From Bacillota bacterium (GTDB taxonomy: Bacteria > Bacillota > Sulfobacillia > Fermentithermobacillales > Fermentithermobacillaceae), in NCBI GenBank assembly GCA_050952065.1, contig JBMNKF010000007.1, positions 76,412 through 140,411 on the forward strand: a stretch of DNA of 64,000 nucleotides. Reading direction: 5' to 3'. Numbering within the stretch: the first letter of the stretch is position 1; each line of letters begins with the position of its first letter. The notes under the pieces are model-generated. The model was given only the letters and a program-made list of their open reading frames with translations. It was not told the DNA's origin and did not search any database. Both the position numbers and the translations under genes were made by a program. Positions 1,502 through 8,097 of this stretch are shown here, in pieces.

Positions 1502-2512
1502 TTGACGAGAGTCTTTGATGCTGGGAAACTCCCTCTTGATACGTTAAAACAAGTGGTGTTTAGGAGAGGCGGATCCAAAAGGCCCGAGGTGCTCGTCTAC
1601 CCATCTATAGGTGAAGACACCTCGGTAGTTGATGTTGGCTCGGAACTCTTAGTCATAAGCACCGACCCCATTACCGGAGCACAAGAAAACGCAGGTTGGC
1701 TGGGGGTGAAAGTGGCCCTGAACGATATTGGCGCTTCAGGTGCAGAGCCAATCTGCATTATGGTGACACTTCTGCTTCCGGAGGGAACGATCCATGACGA
1801 TTTCTCGGCCATTATCGACGATATCCACCGCGCATGTGTGGAAGAAAACGTGGCTATCGCAGGCGGACACAGCGAGGTCACTCCGGGTTTGTCAAAACCC
1901 ATCATCAGCGTAACCGCTGTAGGGAAGACTGTAGGAAGAAAGGTGTTGCGGGCCAGCGGTGCTAGACCCGGCGACGACATAGTGATGACCAAGTGGGCGG
2001 GCATGGAAGGCACAGCCATCCTGGCCAAGGACTTTCGAGGCGTCCTTCAAGAGAGAATTGACCTGGAACTGTTGGACCAGGCGGAGAAGCTTATGGCCTG
2101 GGTGAGCGTGACCAAAGATGGACGCATTGCTCTTCTGAATGGGGCTACAGGCTCGCACGATGCCACCGAAGGAGGCGTTCTGGGAGCCATTTACGAAGTG
2201 TGCGAAGCTTCGGGAACAGGTGCGCGGGTTGACGTCCAAGCCATCCCGGTACTCCGATGTACCCAGGAGATCTCTAGAATTGCGGGAATAGACCCGTTGA
2301 GGTTGGTTGCGTCGGGTTGTCTTGTGATAACAGCGCCAGACGGACCGAGTCTTTGCGAAGCGTATAGACAAAACGGTATCAACGCACAGGTGGTGGGCAA
2401 GATTACGTCAGGGGACAGATGCCTCGTGGTATCTGGAGAATTGTTTCCCCTGGAGTCTCCCAAGTCCGATGAGCTGTGGCGAGCAAGGCAGTTTTTCGAG
2501 GGAATGCGATAA
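1502..2512 (+). CDS. AIR synthase-related protein (PurM/HypE/SelD/ThiL superfamily), function unknown
   Basis: 336 aa. N-terminal PurM-like fold motifs (GEDTSVVD, STDPITGA, ALNDIGASGAEP) and C-terminal AIRS_C-like half. TTG start 6 nt downstream of GGAGGAAG. Confidence 0.6.
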   Translation: MTRVFDAGKLPLDTLKQVVFRRGGSKRPEVLVYPSIGEDTSVVDVGSELLVISTDPITGAQENAGWLGVKVALNDIGASGAEPICIMVTLLLPEGTIHDDFSAIIDDIHRACVEENVAIAGGHSEVTPGLSKPIISVTAVGKTVGRKVLRASGARPGDDIVMTKWAGMEGTAILAKDFRGVLQERIDLELLDQAEKLMAWVSVTKDGRIALLNGATGSHDATEGGVLGAIYEVCEASGTGARVDVQAIPVLRCTQEISRIAGIDPLRLVASGCLVITAPDGPSLCEAYRQNGINAQVVGKITSGDRCLVVSGELFPLESPKSDELWRARQFFEGMR

Positions 2513-2539: not shown

Positions 2540-3400
2540 ATGTGGGTTACTTGGACACTGGTAGTCTTGGCGGTTCTCCTGTGGTTTGGAGTCTCCTGGC
2601 TGTCGGCGCTTGTTGAAAAATACTCCCACAGTCTCGAATCGATCTCGGTATTGGCTATCCTAGGCGTGGCTTCCCTATGGTTCGGGAGGCAAGCTGTTGG
2701 GAAACTCGCCCCTGAGTGGACGATGGGCCCTACCCTTGGAGCGTCTTTAGTGATAGGACTTGTGGTGTTTTCCCTTCTTTCGTATGTGGTGGTCAACCTA
2801 TGGCTGGCTCTTCTGACTAAGGAATACGACCAGCGTATTGCCTCTTTGGAGGAAGAAGAGGACTCTATACTGCGGACTCTTGAGTCCATGCGATGGCAGT
2901 CGCTGAGGGCAGGTGCGTCAGAAGGTCCGATGATAAAGGAGACCCCGAAGGTTTCTCCCAAACAGAACGAAGCCGACGTCCTCGCCGACTTTGTGGCCCG
3001 ATGGGAGCAAGAAGGAGGGGCCGCTCGTATTCGGTCTTTGAAAGTATTGGAGTGGAAGGATGAGGTTTCTGCCAAGTCAGAAGATGATCTGCGGCAGTTC
3101 ATCAGCCAATTGCGCCAGGTAACCGAGACGGAGACTGACGACATTAGGAAAGAGCAAGCGAGAGTAAGGCTGGCTCTTGCAGAACTTGAGGCGTTATCCA
3201 GGACTCCCGCCAGGCGGGATTCCGAGGAATCGTGGGTGTCAAAGGACGTCAGGGACCAGAGCCCCGCACCTATAGACCTAGATCAGTCAGCCTTGAGACA
3301 GCGCCTCCAAGAGATTAATCGGTGCATCAATGTCGCCAGATCCGAAAAAGCTCTCTTTCTTAGACACAAGGTCTCCTTAAGATGGGGGAGAAGGCAATGA
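2540..3400 (+). CDS. Hypothetical membrane protein: 3 predicted TM helices plus long acidic coiled-coil region
   Basis: 286 aa. Hydrophobic N-terminus (WTLVVLAVLLWFGVSWLSALV..., ILGVASLWF, LVIGLVVFSLLSYVVVNLWLALL), then E/R/K-rich heptad-like sequence. AAGAGGTG RBS before ATG 2540. Its stop overlaps the next gene start (ATGA at 3397-3400). Confidence 0.5.
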   Translation: MWVTWTLVVLAVLLWFGVSWLSALVEKYSHSLESISVLAILGVASLWFGRQAVGKLAPEWTMGPTLGASLVIGLVVFSLLSYVVVNLWLALLTKEYDQRIASLEEEEDSILRTLESMRWQSLRAGASEGPMIKETPKVSPKQNEADVLADFVARWEQEGGAARIRSLKVLEWKDEVSAKSEDDLRQFISQLRQVTETETDDIRKEQARVRLALAELEALSRTPARRDSEESWVSKDVRDQSPAPIDLDQSALRQRLQEINRCINVARSEKALFLRHKVSLRWGRRQ

Positions 3401-3837
3401 GCCACATGAGTTCATACAAGGCGGACATAAGACTTCAAAGTGCTCTCGAAGAGGGAAGGCCCGTGGAAGAAGACCCGGGGTGGGAGATTCTTGAAGAGGC
3501 GGTGATGACAGCCGCCCAGGAGATGAATCTCGACGTCAGCCACACCATACACGACTACTATGGCCGGGGAATCTTCTGTGATTGGGCTATGACCGGACCG
3601 GAAATCCCAAGAGGGCTGGGAGTCAGTGTGGACCGGAAGACCGGAGAAGTCACTTTCGTGTGCGACACATATGGAGGGTACGAGAGGATTGCGGGTGAGA
3701 TCAAGGACAGGGTCATCCAAAACTACTCGGCCCTGTGTGTGACCAAGGCTCTGTCGGCACTGAACTACACAGTCGACGTGGATGAAGTACAGCATCCTGT
3801 TCACGGCAAGAAGGTTATGGTTAGAGGAGTGCTGTGA
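3397..3837 (+). CDS. DUF1257 (Ycf35-like) family protein
   Basis: About 146 aa from ATG 3397 (MSHMSSYKADIRLQSALEEG...). The MSH-S-IKT-I-D type N-terminus and size match my recollection of the DUF1257/Ycf35 family. ATGA overlap with upstream gene. The ORF-track start at 3382 is also possible. Confidence 0.55.
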   Translation: MSHMSSYKADIRLQSALEEGRPVEEDPGWEILEEAVMTAAQEMNLDVSHTIHDYYGRGIFCDWAMTGPEIPRGLGVSVDRKTGEVTFVCDTYGGYERIAGEIKDRVIQNYSALCVTKALSALNYTVDVDEVQHPVHGKKVMVRGVL

Positions 3838-4064
3838 TGACCAGAAGAATTGACGTGGAGGTATCCCGGGGTGGCAGAGTGAAAATGGAGTTCTCAGGCT
3901 TTCCCGGGGAAGAGTGCTTTGCCGAAGCGGAGGTCCTGCAAAATGCCCTTAGGGAACTGGGTCTTTGGGCTTTGCCCGTGACGATCACTCCCAAGACAAC
4001 AAGGGAGATCGAGTCCGAATTGCCCAGAAAGACTGCGGAAAAGCAGAAGGTGCCCGTATCATGA
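3834..4064 (+). CDS. DUF2997-like small protein (copy 1)
   Basis: 76 aa (MMTRRIDVEVSRGGRVKMEFSGFPGEECFAEAEVLQNALRELGL...). Pattern I-x-V-x(4)-G-x-V-x(3)-G-F-x-G-x-x-C-x(n)-LExxLG is typical of the ~60-70 aa DUF2997 family. GTGATGA start/stop overlap with DUF1257 gene. Confidence 0.5.
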   Translation: MMTRRIDVEVSRGGRVKMEFSGFPGEECFAEAEVLQNALRELGLWALPVTITPKTTREIESELPRKTAEKQKVPVS

Positions 4065-4243
4065 CGGCCAATGGAAACGAAGCGAATTCCCAAGTTGCCA
4101 AGTCCTATTTCGAACTGGAGATCAGAGGGGATATCATAAACGTCTACGAAAGAATGGGAGACGGCGCTACATGCCTGCTGGCTAAAGCCCTAGAAAGGCT
4201 GGGGCTCAGACTGAGAGTCCGCGTGAGTTCTCCCTGCGGTTAG
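4061..4243 (+). CDS. Second DUF2997-like mini-protein (copy 2), 60 aa
   Basis: ATG 4061 overlaps the stop of the previous gene (ATGA). Sequence MTANGNEANSQVAKSYFELEIRGDIINVYERMGDGATCLLAKALERLGLRL repeats the same E-x-E/I-x-G-x(n)-G-x-G-x-x-C-x(4)-LExLG pattern. It is embedded in the longer ORF-track entry 3965..4243. Confidence 0.4.
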   Translation: MTANGNEANSQVAKSYFELEIRGDIINVYERMGDGATCLLAKALERLGLRLRVRVSSPCG

Positions 4244-4269
4244 GAACTGGGAGAGGGAGGCCCGGGTGT

Positions 4270-5976
4270 TTGATGAGGTTTCTTGACGAATCCTGGATAC
4301 AGTCTGGTATTCTCAAGCGAAGGGCGAACTACTCGCCTATTCTGTGTTTCGAGACCGTGGATCCCAAGAGGATATATCAACTGAAGTCGTTCTTGCTGTC
4401 TTCGCCTGAATTTTCCCAGACGGAGCACTTCTTCCTGTACGACCCTTGGGAAGGTCTCGGCACGCTTCGAAAAGGTGTGGACGGTCCCCTCTTTGAGCCA
4501 TACCGAAAAAGGTCTTTAAGGGATACTCCCCTGACTTCTAGAATACGCCCGGAGGGCGGCATAGAGTTTGGTGCCTTGAAGAGTGTCTTGAAAGAGGTTG
4601 ACCCGTTCCTTAAGACTTCTCAGACTGTGTTCCTCCTCCAGAACGTTTCTGACGTGAGAGAAGCCGACACGGGGTTTCAGGCCGCTATGAGGGCGTGGGC
4701 TATCGATCCCAACATCTTGTCCAGAGGTTCCACCGTGATAATCTTGACCTCAGATGCCTCTCGCATCATGGACGATTTTACAAAGGAGTATGTTGTTGTC
4801 ATTGCCATTGACCCATCCACCAGCCAGGAGCGCGAGAGCCTTATCATGTCTGTCGGGAGAGAGTTGGGGGTAAGTCTTGACGAGTCCCGCTTGGAAAGCG
4901 CCGCGGTGGCTCTGTCGGGGCTCAACCTCCATCAAGTAGAGAGCATCCTACTCGAATCGTACCAGCGCGTCAAAGATTTCGAACCTGACATTATGAAAGA
5001 GCTCAAGTCAGAATTGGTGAAGCGGTCCGGAGTGCTGGAGGTTAGGGATCCGCAGTTCAGCTTCAAGGATATTGGCGGTTATCACGCCATCAAGGATTTC
5101 GTCTCGAAGTACATCATAAACGTCCTCAAAAGACCTGAAAAGGCCAGGCGTTTTGGCCTTGGCTTGCCCAAGGGCCTCTTGTTCTTCGGTCCCCCCGGGA
5201 CAGGGAAGAGCTTGTTTTCCAACGCTTTGGCAAGCGAAGTCCAGCTCCCGTTCATAAACCTGGTCACAGAAAACATCTATTCCAAGTGGTTGGGGGAGTC
5301 GGGCCAGAACATGAAAAACGCCATAATCATGGCGGAAAAGATGTCCCCGGCTATCGTTTTTGTTGACGAAATTGACAGATTCGGCAAAAGGACCGGCAGT
5401 TCTGCCGGTTCAGCTGAAGAAGAAACCCAGCGCGTGTTCTCGCAGTTCCTGGAGTGGTTGGGGCGACCAGACAGGGAAGCCATCATTGTTGGAACGACTA
5501 ATGTGCCAGAGCACCTCGATGAAGCTTTTCTCAGAGCGGGAAGATTCGACTACAAGATCCCCTTTCTATACCCGGGGCCTGAAGCGCGTCTGGAGATACT
5601 TCTTGTGCACCTTGGACTGTCGCCCGGTGGCAGGAGACCTCCGGTGCCTCTGGACATGAAGCCCGAAGATGTGCGCGGGTTCCTGATGGAGGCAGTTGTG
5701 CCCCTCACCAAGAATTTCTCTTGCGCGGAACTGGAAGAGCTGGTGACTAGGGCCAAGAGGATAAGTTTCGACAAAGACAGAGAGCATGTATCTGGTGATG
5801 ATCTAGTAACGGCCGCGACAACTTTTCGGATTGACTATTCGGCCCGCAGGCGAACGGTTGAGACTTGCATGATCCAGGCAAGACACTTTACCGATGATCA
5901 AACGTTCCTTGATGCTATTGAAGAAGAGAACAAAGTGTATGAGAATGGTGCTACATCTTCTAGAAATGAGGGATGA
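4270..5976 (+). CDS. Classical AAA-family ATPase (single AAA domain, CDC48/Vps4/FtsH-like clade) with unique ~270 aa N-terminal domain
   Basis: 568 aa. Walker A GPPGTGKS, Walker B VFVDEIDR, SRH region TTNVPEHLDEAFLRAGRFDYKIPF. TTG/ATG start after GGGAGG. Confidence 0.85.
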   Translation: MMRFLDESWIQSGILKRRANYSPILCFETVDPKRIYQLKSFLLSSPEFSQTEHFFLYDPWEGLGTLRKGVDGPLFEPYRKRSLRDTPLTSRIRPEGGIEFGALKSVLKEVDPFLKTSQTVFLLQNVSDVREADTGFQAAMRAWAIDPNILSRGSTVIILTSDASRIMDDFTKEYVVVIAIDPSTSQERESLIMSVGRELGVSLDESRLESAAVALSGLNLHQVESILLESYQRVKDFEPDIMKELKSELVKRSGVLEVRDPQFSFKDIGGYHAIKDFVSKYIINVLKRPEKARRFGLGLPKGLLFFGPPGTGKSLFSNALASEVQLPFINLVTENIYSKWLGESGQNMKNAIIMAEKMSPAIVFVDEIDRFGKRTGSSAGSAEEETQRVFSQFLEWLGRPDREAIIVGTTNVPEHLDEAFLRAGRFDYKIPFLYPGPEARLEILLVHLGLSPGGRRPPVPLDMKPEDVRGFLMEAVVPLTKNFSCAELEELVTRAKRISFDKDREHVSGDDLVTAATTFRIDYSARRRTVETCMIQARHFTDDQTFLDAIEEENKVYENGATSSRNEG

Positions 5977-5979
5977 GGC

Positions 5980-6210
5980 GTGAAGGCTAAGATAGAAGCT
6001 GCGCTCAACCAGATTCGCCCGTCATTACAGGCGGACGGCGGAGACGTCGAACTCGTTGATGTTTCCCAAGATGGCGTAGTCAAGGTCAAGCTTACCGGGG
6101 CTTGTGGAACCTGTCCCTTTGCTACAATGACTCTGAAAGCCGGGATCGAGAGAATCTTGAAAAAGGAGATCCCGGAAGTCAAAGAAGTCGTGGCGGTAGA
6201 TCCTACATAA
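5980..6210 (+). CDS. NifU-like (Nfu-type) Fe-S cluster domain protein
   Basis: 76 aa with GACGTCPFATMTLKAGIERIL containing the CxxC motif of the NifU C-terminal/Nfu domain. GTG start only 3 nt after the AAA ATPase stop, preceded by GAGGGATGAGG. Confidence 0.7.
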   Translation: MKAKIEAALNQIRPSLQADGGDVELVDVSQDGVVKVKLTGACGTCPFATMTLKAGIERILKKEIPEVKEVVAVDPT

Positions 6211-6552: not shown

Positions 6553-8097
6553 GTGGGGGAAGGGACTTCACAAGTAATCGTCAGTGAAGCCGTAACGGTG
6601 CCTGAGGAAAAACCCCCGGTTAGGGCGGTCATTGACTTTGTGGCGAGGACTAGGATAGACAAAGTCACGGTGTTGCCCGGCAAGGTGATTGTGGACGGTA
6701 CGGTGGACTTCGCCATCATCTACGAAGCTACTGTGGAGACTCAGACGGTTCACGTGTTTCATGCGGAGGTCAAGTTCAGTACGTTTGTGGAGATCCCAGG
6801 TGTCGAGCCTGGTATGACTGCGACCCCCACGCTTGCCATTGAGCACGCGGTCTTCCAGGTTAGCCCGGATGGAAGAACAATCACCATCCGAGCGGTCGCG
6901 GCCCTCTCGGTAAGAGTGACTCAGTCGGTGGTTATCGACGTCATAACGGACGTTTCGGGCCTGCCCGGACTCCAGGTCACCAAAGAGGTTGTGAAGGCTG
7001 AAACAGTGCTGGGTGAGGGAGAAGCCCAATACGTGGTACGGGAGAACTTGCAGATTCCCGACGCTAAGCCTGACGCGGCGCGAGTGATAGACTTCGTGTC
7101 GACCATACAGGTGAACTCCACCACAGTTCTGCCCAACAAGATAATAATCAACGGCACCATCAGCCTAAGGGTCATCTACGAAGCGGCCGTGCCCAGCCAG
7201 TCGGTTCACGTGGCTCACTTCACCATCCCCTTCGAAGCGTTTGTGGAAGTCCCGGGAGCGCAGCCGGGGATGGCGGTAATCGCGGCGGCTCAGGTTGAGT
7301 TCATCTCTATCGATGTGAATGCTACTGGTCGAGTGCTTCAGGTGAGGATCATTCTTAAGGTTACGGCAAAGGTCATCCGAGTCCAGAAGGTCCAGGTTGT
7401 GACCAACGTAGCCGGTATAGCAGATTTGGTGCTCTGGAAGGAGCTAATCAGGGTCCAAGAGGTCTTGGGTGAAAACAAATCTCAGGGGATCGTTCGAGAG
7501 ATTGTGGACGTTCCTGACGAGAAGCCATCTGTGGCTATGGTGATTGATTCCAGTTCTTCTCCGGAGGTCAAGAGAGTTATCGTGGCCCCAGGGAAAGTCA
7601 TCGTTGATGGCGCCATAGCTCAGAGGATCATCTATGAACCGCTGGATTGCCCGATGCAACAAGTGCATACGCTGCACTTTACGGTTCCTTTCTCCGAGTT
7701 TGTGGTGTTGCCAGAGGCTAAACCCGGCATGGTTGCCAGAGTGGATGTTCAGGTGGAACACGCCAATTTTGAGGTACCGCCTTCGGGAGATCCCGTTATG
7801 GCCACCAAAATCATCCAGCTCGTAGCAAGAGTGTTTAAGACCAGGGTCATCAATGTAGTGGTCAAGATTCAATTAGGCAAACCGAAACCCACCTGTACCG
7901 GTACAGTCACCGGGAACCTGGTTAACGTCAGGCAAGGTCCCGGAACCACCTATGCAGTTGTTGCCCAAGTCAATGCTGGTACGGTGGTCGCGGTACTGGA
8001 GTTCTCGCCCGATTGGGTTAAGGTAAGACTACCCAACGGAGTGGTGGGATGGATTTCCTCCGCATACTTGCGGCATGACTGCAAGCCGTTGGGGTAG
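6553..8097 (+). CDS. Secreted/spore-associated repeat protein: three ~125 aa DUF3794/SipL-like repeats plus C-terminal bacterial SH3 domain
   Basis: Internal repeats (VLGEG-x-Q-x-VV-x-E-x-V-PD-KP...V-x-VLP-KVI-x-G-x-IYEA...VH...F...F-x-FVE-PGA-PGM) recur three times. C-terminus GTVTGNLVNVRQGPGTTYAVVAQVNAGTVVAVLE...WVKVRLPNGVVGWISSAYL is SH3b-like. The true start is probably upstream of 6553 (see findings). Confidence 0.7.
   Translation: MGEGTSQVIVSEAVTVPEEKPPVRAVIDFVARTRIDKVTVLPGKVIVDGTVDFAIIYEATVETQTVHVFHAEVKFSTFVEIPGVEPGMTATPTLAIEHAVFQVSPDGRTITIRAVAALSVRVTQSVVIDVITDVSGLPGLQVTKEVVKAETVLGEGEAQYVVRENLQIPDAKPDAARVIDFVSTIQVNSTTVLPNKIIINGTISLRVIYEAAVPSQSVHVAHFTIPFEAFVEVPGAQPGMAVIAAAQVEFISIDVNATGRVLQVRIILKVTAKVIRVQKVQVVTNVAGIADLVLWKELIRVQEVLGENKSQGIVREIVDVPDEKPSVAMVIDSSSSPEVKRVIVAPGKVIVDGAIAQRIIYEPLDCPMQQVHTLHFTVPFSEFVVLPEAKPGMVARVDVQVEHANFEVPPSGDPVMATKIIQLVARVFKTRVINVVVKIQLGKPKPTCTGTVTGNLVNVRQGPGTTYAVVAQVNAGTVVAVLEFSPDWVKVRLPNGVVGWISSAYLRHDCKPLG

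Follow-up and report, generated by a model that had tools for sequence, protein, structure and literature searches.

The window analysed here is a stretch of 64,000 nucleotides from a Bacillota bacterium of the family Fermentithermobacillaceae (assembly GCA_050952065.1, contig JBMNKF010000007.1, positions 76,412 to 140,411 of the forward strand). Between positions 2540 and 5976 of the window lie five genes, all on the plus strand, which make up an operon whose third and fourth members are two small open reading frames, ORF1 and ORF2, placed directly upstream of a gene for an AAA+ ATPase. An earlier reading of the sequence alone (hereafter the first-pass annotation) had taken ORF1 and ORF2 for a tandem duplication of a DUF2997-like mini-gene, each copy retaining a lone conserved cysteine. 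We find that ORF2 is a real protein-coding gene under purifying selection and that the most striking feature of its family is one which had gone unmentioned in that annotation, namely an invariant Cys-Gly dipeptide at the C-terminus.

The operon and its two overlapping mini-genes

The first gene of the operon (2540..3400) codes for a protein of 286 amino acids (aa) whose N-terminal part has hydrophobic, probably transmembrane segments and whose C-terminal half is charged and coiled-coil-like, both features being read from the sequence and not computed. The second (3397..3837) codes for a protein of about 146 aa, with its start set by an alignment of orthologues; the third is ORF1 (3837..4064), the fourth ORF2 (4061..4243), and the fifth, which closes the core, is the ATPase gene (4273..5976). 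The first four of these genes overlap: the stop codon of the 286-aa gene and the start codon of the 146-aa gene meet in an ATGA (3397-3400), the stop of the latter and the start of ORF1 in a TGATG (3835-3839), and the TGA of ORF1 (4062-4064) and the ATG of ORF2 (4061-4063) again share bases in an ATGA (4061-4064), as the first-pass annotation had correctly recognized; ORF2 then runs to a TAG at 4241-4243. The ATGA at the ORF1-ORF2 junction would allow translational coupling of the two genes, and a candidate Shine-Dalgarno-like motif, GAAGGTG, can be read at 4046..4052 within ORF1, 8 nucleotides (nt) 5' of the ORF2 start codon. A stop/start overlap of 1 or 4 nt is likewise found in eight of the nine distinct ORF1-ORF2 pairs called in related loci (L001, L003, L004, L013, L015, L016, L018 and L020), the ninth (L022) having a gap of 20 nt. 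The region shows no shift in base composition, an Rfam scan of the operon gave no match, and promoter and terminator scans of the operon returned counts at background.

ORF1 most likely starts at the ATG at 3837, which gives a product of 75 aa, rather than at the GTG at 3834 (76 aa), because every homologue begins with M-[TAS]-R and the identical NCBI product, P0006, is 75 aa long. Against the Pfam hidden Markov model (HMM) PF11211 (DUF2997) it scores 18.0-18.1 bits (E 0.0025), below the gathering score of 24.1, and six of eight close homologues give sub-threshold matches to the same model; orthologues at the same position in L014 (29.2 bits), L038 (27.0 bits) and L015 (25.4 bits) pass it. These matches support the placement of ORF1 in the DUF2997 clade, with the window copy by itself falling below the cut-off; the DUF2997-like character claimed by the first-pass annotation is thus upheld through the orthologues, and the length of 76 aa is not. 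Across the clade the loop S-G-F-x-G-x-x-C, including Cys27, is invariant. A low-confidence AlphaFold2 model of ORF1 (pLDDT 62, built on 8 sequences) has predicted strands at residues 4-9, 15-20 and 48-50 and helices at residues 26-40 and 55-61; a search of PDB sequences with the ORF1 profile gave matches with E >0.4 in every case. A related 96-aa protein, P0014, from an ENA contig of 3368 nt, appears to read through from ORF1 into ORF2 by way of a frameshift, which probably arose as an error of sequencing or assembly; we left this protein out of the alignments. Antisense to ORF1 there is a minus-strand ORF of 90 aa (3821-4093), which we treated as a shadow ORF.

ORF2 is short, goes uncalled in the related locus L014, and lies nested in a longer entry of the program-made ORF list (3965..4243), of which it forms the final 60 codons, as the first-pass annotation had seen. 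These properties could suggest that it is no gene at all, having arisen by chance or serving as a leader region of the ATPase gene; however, the pattern of its conservation refutes this reading and leaves it a negligible probability. Over a core of 46 codons, the proportion of synonymous differences exceeds that of nonsynonymous differences in every pair compared, and dN/dS is 0.09-0.29 in the pairs with unsaturated dS; several residues are invariant in 69 divergent sequences; and in all of the approximately 40 AAA-linked loci recovered the position of ORF2 is constant, with its frame and stop position kept. The ORF2 frame thus carries the signal of a coding sequence at homologous loci.

The supposition that standard gene callers would miss ORF2 does not hold for the window, as the NCBI, JGI and Logan annotations all include its product. 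It is identical to MGI6643554.1 (60 aa, ACOX3V_06120), a hypothetical protein of a Bacillota metagenome-assembled genome (MAG), the gene for which adjoins the ORF1 gene ACOX3V_06115 in the NCBI annotation. A word-indexed search with ORF2 recovered five homologue clusters with lengths of 58-81 aa, on contigs sharing the gene order of the window, and the ORF2 frame is present in the translated loci L007 and L009-L011. In L014, translation uncovered a homologue at 4808-5001 in a gap without a called gene; this copy and those of L040-L042, which together form a divergent clade with ATPases about 62% identical to that of the window, end in ...QS(I/M)CG. Judging from the uncalled copy in L014, the ORF2 family is probably under-annotated.

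The ORF2 family and its Cys-Gly end

An exhaustive HMMER search in which the ORF2 profile was compared with 1.84 billion representatives yielded 48 matches, of which approximately 44 are proteins of 55-118 aa aligned through their last residue; the four long matches (including P0159 and P0174) are repeat proteins with TPR/PPC domains and were set aside as spurious. Pooling the members from the profile search with translations from the fetched loci, we obtained 69 distinct cores, with G48, C59 and G60 invariant throughout. Of these cores 62 also have P58, making Pro-Cys-Gly the usual end and the hallmark of the family (its three codons and the stop codon occupy 4232..4243 in the window), and S15, E18, E30, G35 and L44 are near-invariant. 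In each of the 69 sequences the frame stops straight after Cys-Gly, and none is longer; because of this we take the free C-terminal carboxylate to be important, and, judging from the conserved residues, the terminal thiol and this carboxylate together most likely constitute a functional group. The cysteine that the first-pass annotation had pointed to as the conserved one of this copy is C38, a position that is variable across the 69 members and mostly occupied by A, E, R or G, whereas the invariant cysteine is the penultimate C59.

In the conserved core of about 46 residues, a beta-hairpin leads through an E-R-x-G-D-G loop into a helix that closes with L-G-L, and an extended tail at the C-terminus comes after it. 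The AlphaFold2 model of ORF2 (pLDDT 75.6) shows predicted strands at residues 16-22 and 25-32, a helix at 37-46 and an extended tail. N-terminal to the core the members vary in both length and sequence, and this tail is probably disordered. Neither ORF2 nor its family is matched by any model in Pfam, NCBIfam, PADLOC or PHROGs; a Foldseek comparison of the ORF2 model with the PDB gave a best E of 0.56, the top matches being VapB chains without significance, and the ORF2 profile retrieved only designed helical repeats from the PDB sequences. The source records of the family are all labelled "hypothetical protein" and the organisms, where named, are Bacillota MAGs. ORF2 therefore typifies a small, undescribed protein family, lying outside these collections and sometimes skipped by gene callers, which has so far been seen only in MAGs of uncultured Bacillota, such as Candidatus Fermentithermobacillaceae. 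In the literature on DUF2997, DUF1257, ycf35/ycf46, slr0373-0376 and C-terminal Cys-Gly carriers we found no functional study. With DUF2997 and its partners being without known function, the finding is a modest one as long as no function accompanies it, and the terminal Cys-Gly provides a concrete experimental handle.

Conservation of the operon and origin of the mini-gene pair

A tblastn comparison of the window proteins with the fetched loci indicated that the five-gene core is kept down to 50% ATPase identity. An ATPase scan of the genome collection gave seven loci, and the wider sampling came from a metagenome scan and context look-ups. When the metagenomes were scanned with the ORF1 motif only, 21 loci were recovered, in 20 of which an ORF2 ending in CG* directly follows ORF1; in each of these 20, an AAA gene lies 3' of ORF2 wherever the length of the contig permits. 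Further, the gene order is unchanged around three highly divergent ORF2 members (P0179, P0165 and P0175), and for this reason we conclude that the ORF1-ORF2 pairing is both old and obligate within the AAA-linked operon. Thus, in Bacillota, the DUF2997 gene of such operons is accompanied by a second mini-protein and an AAA+ unfoldase. The one exception among the 21 loci is L043 (ORF1 34% identical), which has only a DUF2997-like gene in another context, without ORF2 or the ATPase. In that locus (1-2700) two genes precede the DUF2997-like gene, one for a 190-aa protein that tblastn aligns with the 146-aa protein at 27% identity and one for a protein of 222 aa, and a gene for a 391-aa protein with repeated Cys-rich units comes after it.

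The 286-aa protein, which belongs to no Pfam or NCBIfam family, has a tblastn identity of 22-73% among the loci, and products of 268-303 aa without a Pfam match occupy the same position in L001, L003, L013-L016, L020 and L022. The 146-aa protein is 40-88% identical in all loci (tblastn) and ends in ...KGVL. Because all 26 aligned orthologues begin with MSH(I/M)SSY, its start is probably the ATG at 3397, corresponding to M6 of the listed 151-aa ORF (3382-3837). We presume it to resemble DUF1257/Ycf35, although PF06868, the model of that family, matched neither the window protein nor five divergent orthologues at E up to 1. Its segment GLGVSVDRKTGEVTFVCDTYGGY...ALSALNY (approximately 3610-3760, residues 72-122 or so) was considered as a further ORF1-like unit of hairpin, Gly-rich loop and helix and rejected, the hhalign match (E 0.03, probability 1.6%) not being significant.

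The ATPase matches PF00004 with an E of 1.3e-30 (106.9 bits), and AAA_lid_3 with 21.8 bits, which is below its cut-off. Matches in the PDB to the D2 domain of VCP/CDC48 reach an E of 1e-68, and the best NCBIfam and PDB matches are to PAN, FtsH, CDC48 and VCP-like ATPases. By these profile matches it is an AAA+ ATPase of the classical clade, with a predicted CDC48/PAN/FtsH-like module at residues 255-520 or so preceded by a family-specific region of about 250 aa. We recovered 581 homologues, the best 120 of which align with most of the query at 57-100% identity, and the gene stands 3' of ORF2 in each locus that is long enough. PADLOC had no match for the four non-ATPase proteins and only generic AAA matches, IetA and TRIP13, for the ATPase, and PHROGs had none for the proteins of the operon. 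The L017 contig (1885-5846) has an ATPase orthologue with 58% identity and, after it, two small genes (products of 138 and 72 aa) and then three radical-SAM genes; this contig is cut at the ATPase start, leaving any small genes upstream out of view.

As to the origin of the pair, a tandem duplication in the recent sense is excluded by the absence of DNA or pairwise protein similarity between ORF1 and ORF2 and by the presence of the pairing already in the most divergent loci: BLASTP found no match between the two proteins, and a direct-repeat search of 3800-4280 detected a single chance match of 13 nt and no nucleotide repeat linking ORF1 to ORF2. The motif which the first-pass annotation had written for both peptides fits neither of them exactly by a check made by hand, the spacing to the cysteine differing by one residue in ORF1 and the first gap of ORF2 measuring 7 instead of 3-6. 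Nor is membership of ORF2 in DUF2997 supported, as 0 of 46 family members match PF11211 and the signature loop is missing, with E-R-x-G-D-G-x-T in the place of G-F-x-G-x-x-C.

Profile-profile comparison presents a different picture from the blank BLASTP search. Using 17 ORF1 and 49 ORF2 sequences, hhalign aligned 38 columns of the two families with a score of 26.4 (P 2.5e-5, probability 75%); these span the hairpin, the helix, the L-G-L and the next strand, with a 6-residue gap facing GFPGEE. The score is above the maximum of 15.9 in 30 comparisons with unrelated real-family segments (60-column segments of the ATPase and 146-aa protein families) and above anything reached when the columns of the ORF2 alignment were shuffled 300 times (maximum 17.4, mean 9.7, sd 2.0), although such shuffles destroy the periodicity of secondary structure and may be exceeded by any hairpin-plus-helix peptide. 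Moreover, the ORF2 HMM scores positive on all 17 ORF1 sequences (3.8-12.6 bits) and the ORF1 HMM on all twelve ORF2 members listed (4.8-11.6 bits). The order strand-strand-helix, followed by an extended C-terminal part, is common to the two AlphaFold2 models, and the two genes are always adjacent, as an old tandem pair would be.

Several observations weigh against a shared origin, these being, besides the limits of the shuffle control, the blank BLASTP search, the failure of PF11211 to match any of the 46 ORF2 members even at E up to 10, a first hhalign run with shallow alignments that reached a probability of only 28.8% over 14 columns, and the low confidence (pLDDT 62) that the ORF1 model lends to the comparison of folds. 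Together with a hhalign probability no higher than 75%, the lack of the DUF2997 signature loop and the possession of another hallmark in the C-terminal Cys-Gly, they could be accommodated by a reading in which ORF2 is a real partner of ORF1 that does not derive from DUF2997, the likeness being convergence or that of generic tiny alpha/beta peptides. This reading deserves serious consideration; however, it has to set aside a profile score exceeding every control, cross-HMM scores that are positive both ways, the identical order of secondary structure elements and the constant adjacency of the genes, and we regard it as the less probable. The similarity is weak and above chance, which makes a duplication plausible and not demonstrated; descent of ORF1 and ORF2 from one ancient hairpin-plus-helix mini-gene appears to us somewhat better than an even proposition. 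After such a split, ORF2 would have lost the G-F-x-G-x-x-C loop and gained the Cys-Gly tail. ORF2 is like DUF2997 in its size class, predicted strand-strand-helix order and L-G-L helix end, with a weak, above-chance profile similarity to ORF1, and unlike it in the absence of an HMM match and of the loop Cys, the variable N-terminal tail and the terminal Cys-Gly.

Possible function and clade-specific neighbours

The core is flanked in the window by genes that are not part of it. A gene for an AIR-synthase-superfamily (AIRS) protein, HypE/SelD/ThiL-like, occupies 1502..2512 and ends 28 nt 5' of the operon, and a gene for an Nfu/NifU-like Fe-S carrier (PF01106, E 3.4e-30) follows the ATPase gene at 5980..6210. 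By tblastn, the AIRS-like, Nfu and SipL-like genes accompany the operon only at ATPase identities of about 65-70% and above, Nfu being adjacent only where the identity is about 70% or higher. In L014 Nfu lies at a distance of 2.7 kb, in L015 and L016 there is none within about 4 kb, and none was found in the 1.6 kb of sequence available after the AAA gene in L042; the AIRS-like gene likewise keeps its position in the closer clade only. Housekeeping genes on the flanks, for DNA polymerase III alpha and a methyltransferase, are syntenic in that clade too. The NCBIfam matches of the AIRS-like protein are to hypE (the best), selD and thiL, all far below their cut-offs, and related loci have Pfam AIRS and AIRS_C matches at this gene. 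Adjacency of Nfu, to which the first-pass annotation had drawn a link, is therefore a feature of the closer clade and not of the core.

The tight co-occurrence of the operon proteins and the overlap of their reading frames argue for matched expression, and the hetero-oligomeric partnership that had been suggested for the two mini-proteins is plausible, since both occur in 20 of the 21 loci that the ORF1-only search recovered and in all AAA-linked loci that we examined. We tentatively propose, going by gene order and conserved residues, that the small proteins form an adaptor, regulator or client complex of a membrane-associated AAA+ unfoldase, with the terminal thiol of ORF2 as a reactive or ligand group. 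Coupled in translation, the small proteins would be made in matched amounts, and an ORF1/ORF2 heterodimer, joined by the 146-aa protein, would assemble as the partner of the ATPase. The thiol beside the C-terminal carboxylate of ORF2 could be a metal or Fe-S ligand, form a disulfide, be a redox or persulfide site or provide an activated carrier terminus, perhaps acting together with the invariant Cys27 of ORF1. Such a complex would recall the cofactors of CDC48/VCP and the partners of PAN/Mpa in its coupling to a CDC48/PAN-like AAA module and in the implied co-expression; unlike those adaptors, ORF2 has no relation to them that we could find in sequence or fold, and there is no protease or proteasome gene in the locus.

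A hint of Fe-S chemistry comes from the Nfu gene adjoining the ATPase gene in the window and from the setting of DUF2997 elsewhere. In cyanobacteria, PF11211 genes cluster with ycf35/DUF1257 and fed7, in a conserved duf2997 - ycf35 - fed7 arrangement in which fed7 is a [4Fe-4S] ferredoxin, with no mention of a second copy of DUF2997 (PMC4284462); ycf35 and ycf46 genes are also reported from algal plastid genomes. The setting described here, an AAA+ ATPase operon in Bacillota, thus differs from the ferredoxin cluster of the cyanobacteria. Certain results count against our proposal. The adjacency of Nfu is weak evidence of a functional link because the flanking housekeeping genes are syntenic as well, and the same is true of the AIRS-like gene, which is confined to the lineage with those syntenic genes. 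Both the Foldseek and the profile searches of the PDB yielded nothing informative on mechanism, and no cysteine of the 146-aa protein is invariant in the alignment of 26 orthologues, for which reason we rejected this protein as a further donor to a shared 4-Cys cluster. Taken as a whole, an explanation that combines the real ORF2 gene, the Cys-Gly family and the five-gene operon with the putative common descent and the putative complex seems to us rather probable.

Beyond this proposal, the Cys-Gly mini-protein might itself be the working part of a new AAA+-linked system, its thiol, beside a free carboxylate, either holding a cofactor, be it an Fe-S cluster, a metal or a persulfide, as carrier or ligand, or becoming covalently attached to targets; the DUF2997 paralogue would then act as its pseudo-symmetric partner, with the ATPase loading, unloading or recycling the mini-protein. 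Glutathione ends in the same dipeptide, Cys-Gly. We consider this extension unlikely.

It is still less likely that ORF2 is a carrier or modifier with a chemically activated C-terminus, the loaded or conjugated form of which would be processed by the ATPase, with the AIRS-like enzyme perhaps performing ATP-dependent chemistry. This reading proceeds by analogy with ThiS, MoaD and the SAMPs, in which an invariant C-terminal Gly-Gly is the reactive group, and ORF2 is indeed similar to ThiS, MoaD and other ubiquitin-like carriers in being small and bearing an invariant terminal dipeptide on an extended tail. The termination of all 69 frames right after Cys-Gly, the predicted extended and unpacked state of the tail, and the AIRS-superfamily gene (best NCBIfam match HypE) directly upstream in the closer clade are consistent with it; as HypE-type enzymes act on a C-terminal Cys, HypE modifying that of its own chain, the AIRS-like protein would be a candidate partner of the Cys-Gly end. 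However, the dipeptide of ORF2 is Cys-Gly in 69 of 69 members and not Gly-Gly, and the predicted fold, in which a pair of strands and a single helix precede an extended tail, is not a beta-grasp. Among the operon proteins and the called neighbours scanned there is no E1-like adenylyltransferase (ThiF/MoeB), and the scanned neighbours include no JAB peptidase or ligase either; the distant clade has ORF2 without the AIRS gene, and the HypE, SelD and ThiL scores are, as noted, far below the cut-offs.

Finally, the first-pass annotation would have each of two recently duplicated proteins hold a mid-protein cysteine at an Fe-S or metal site served by Nfu. The invariance of Cys27 in ORF1, the position of Nfu 3' of the ATPase gene in the window and its close relatives, and the ferredoxin gene neighbouring the cyanobacterial DUF2997 genes (PMC4284462) are in its favour, but the variability of C38 in ORF2 contradicts a shared mid-protein cysteine, ORF1 and ORF2 lack similarity both in DNA and in pairwise protein comparison, and even the most divergent loci already have the pair, with Nfu not adjacent in the distant clade, making this version highly improbable.

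The SipL-like gene of the closer clade lies at 6553-8097 in the window; its product of 514 aa contains three internal repeats and, at the C-terminus, SH3 domains, and its orthologues match Pfam SipL, SH3_3 and SH3_4. It is of a sporulation type and is syntenic with the operon in that clade.

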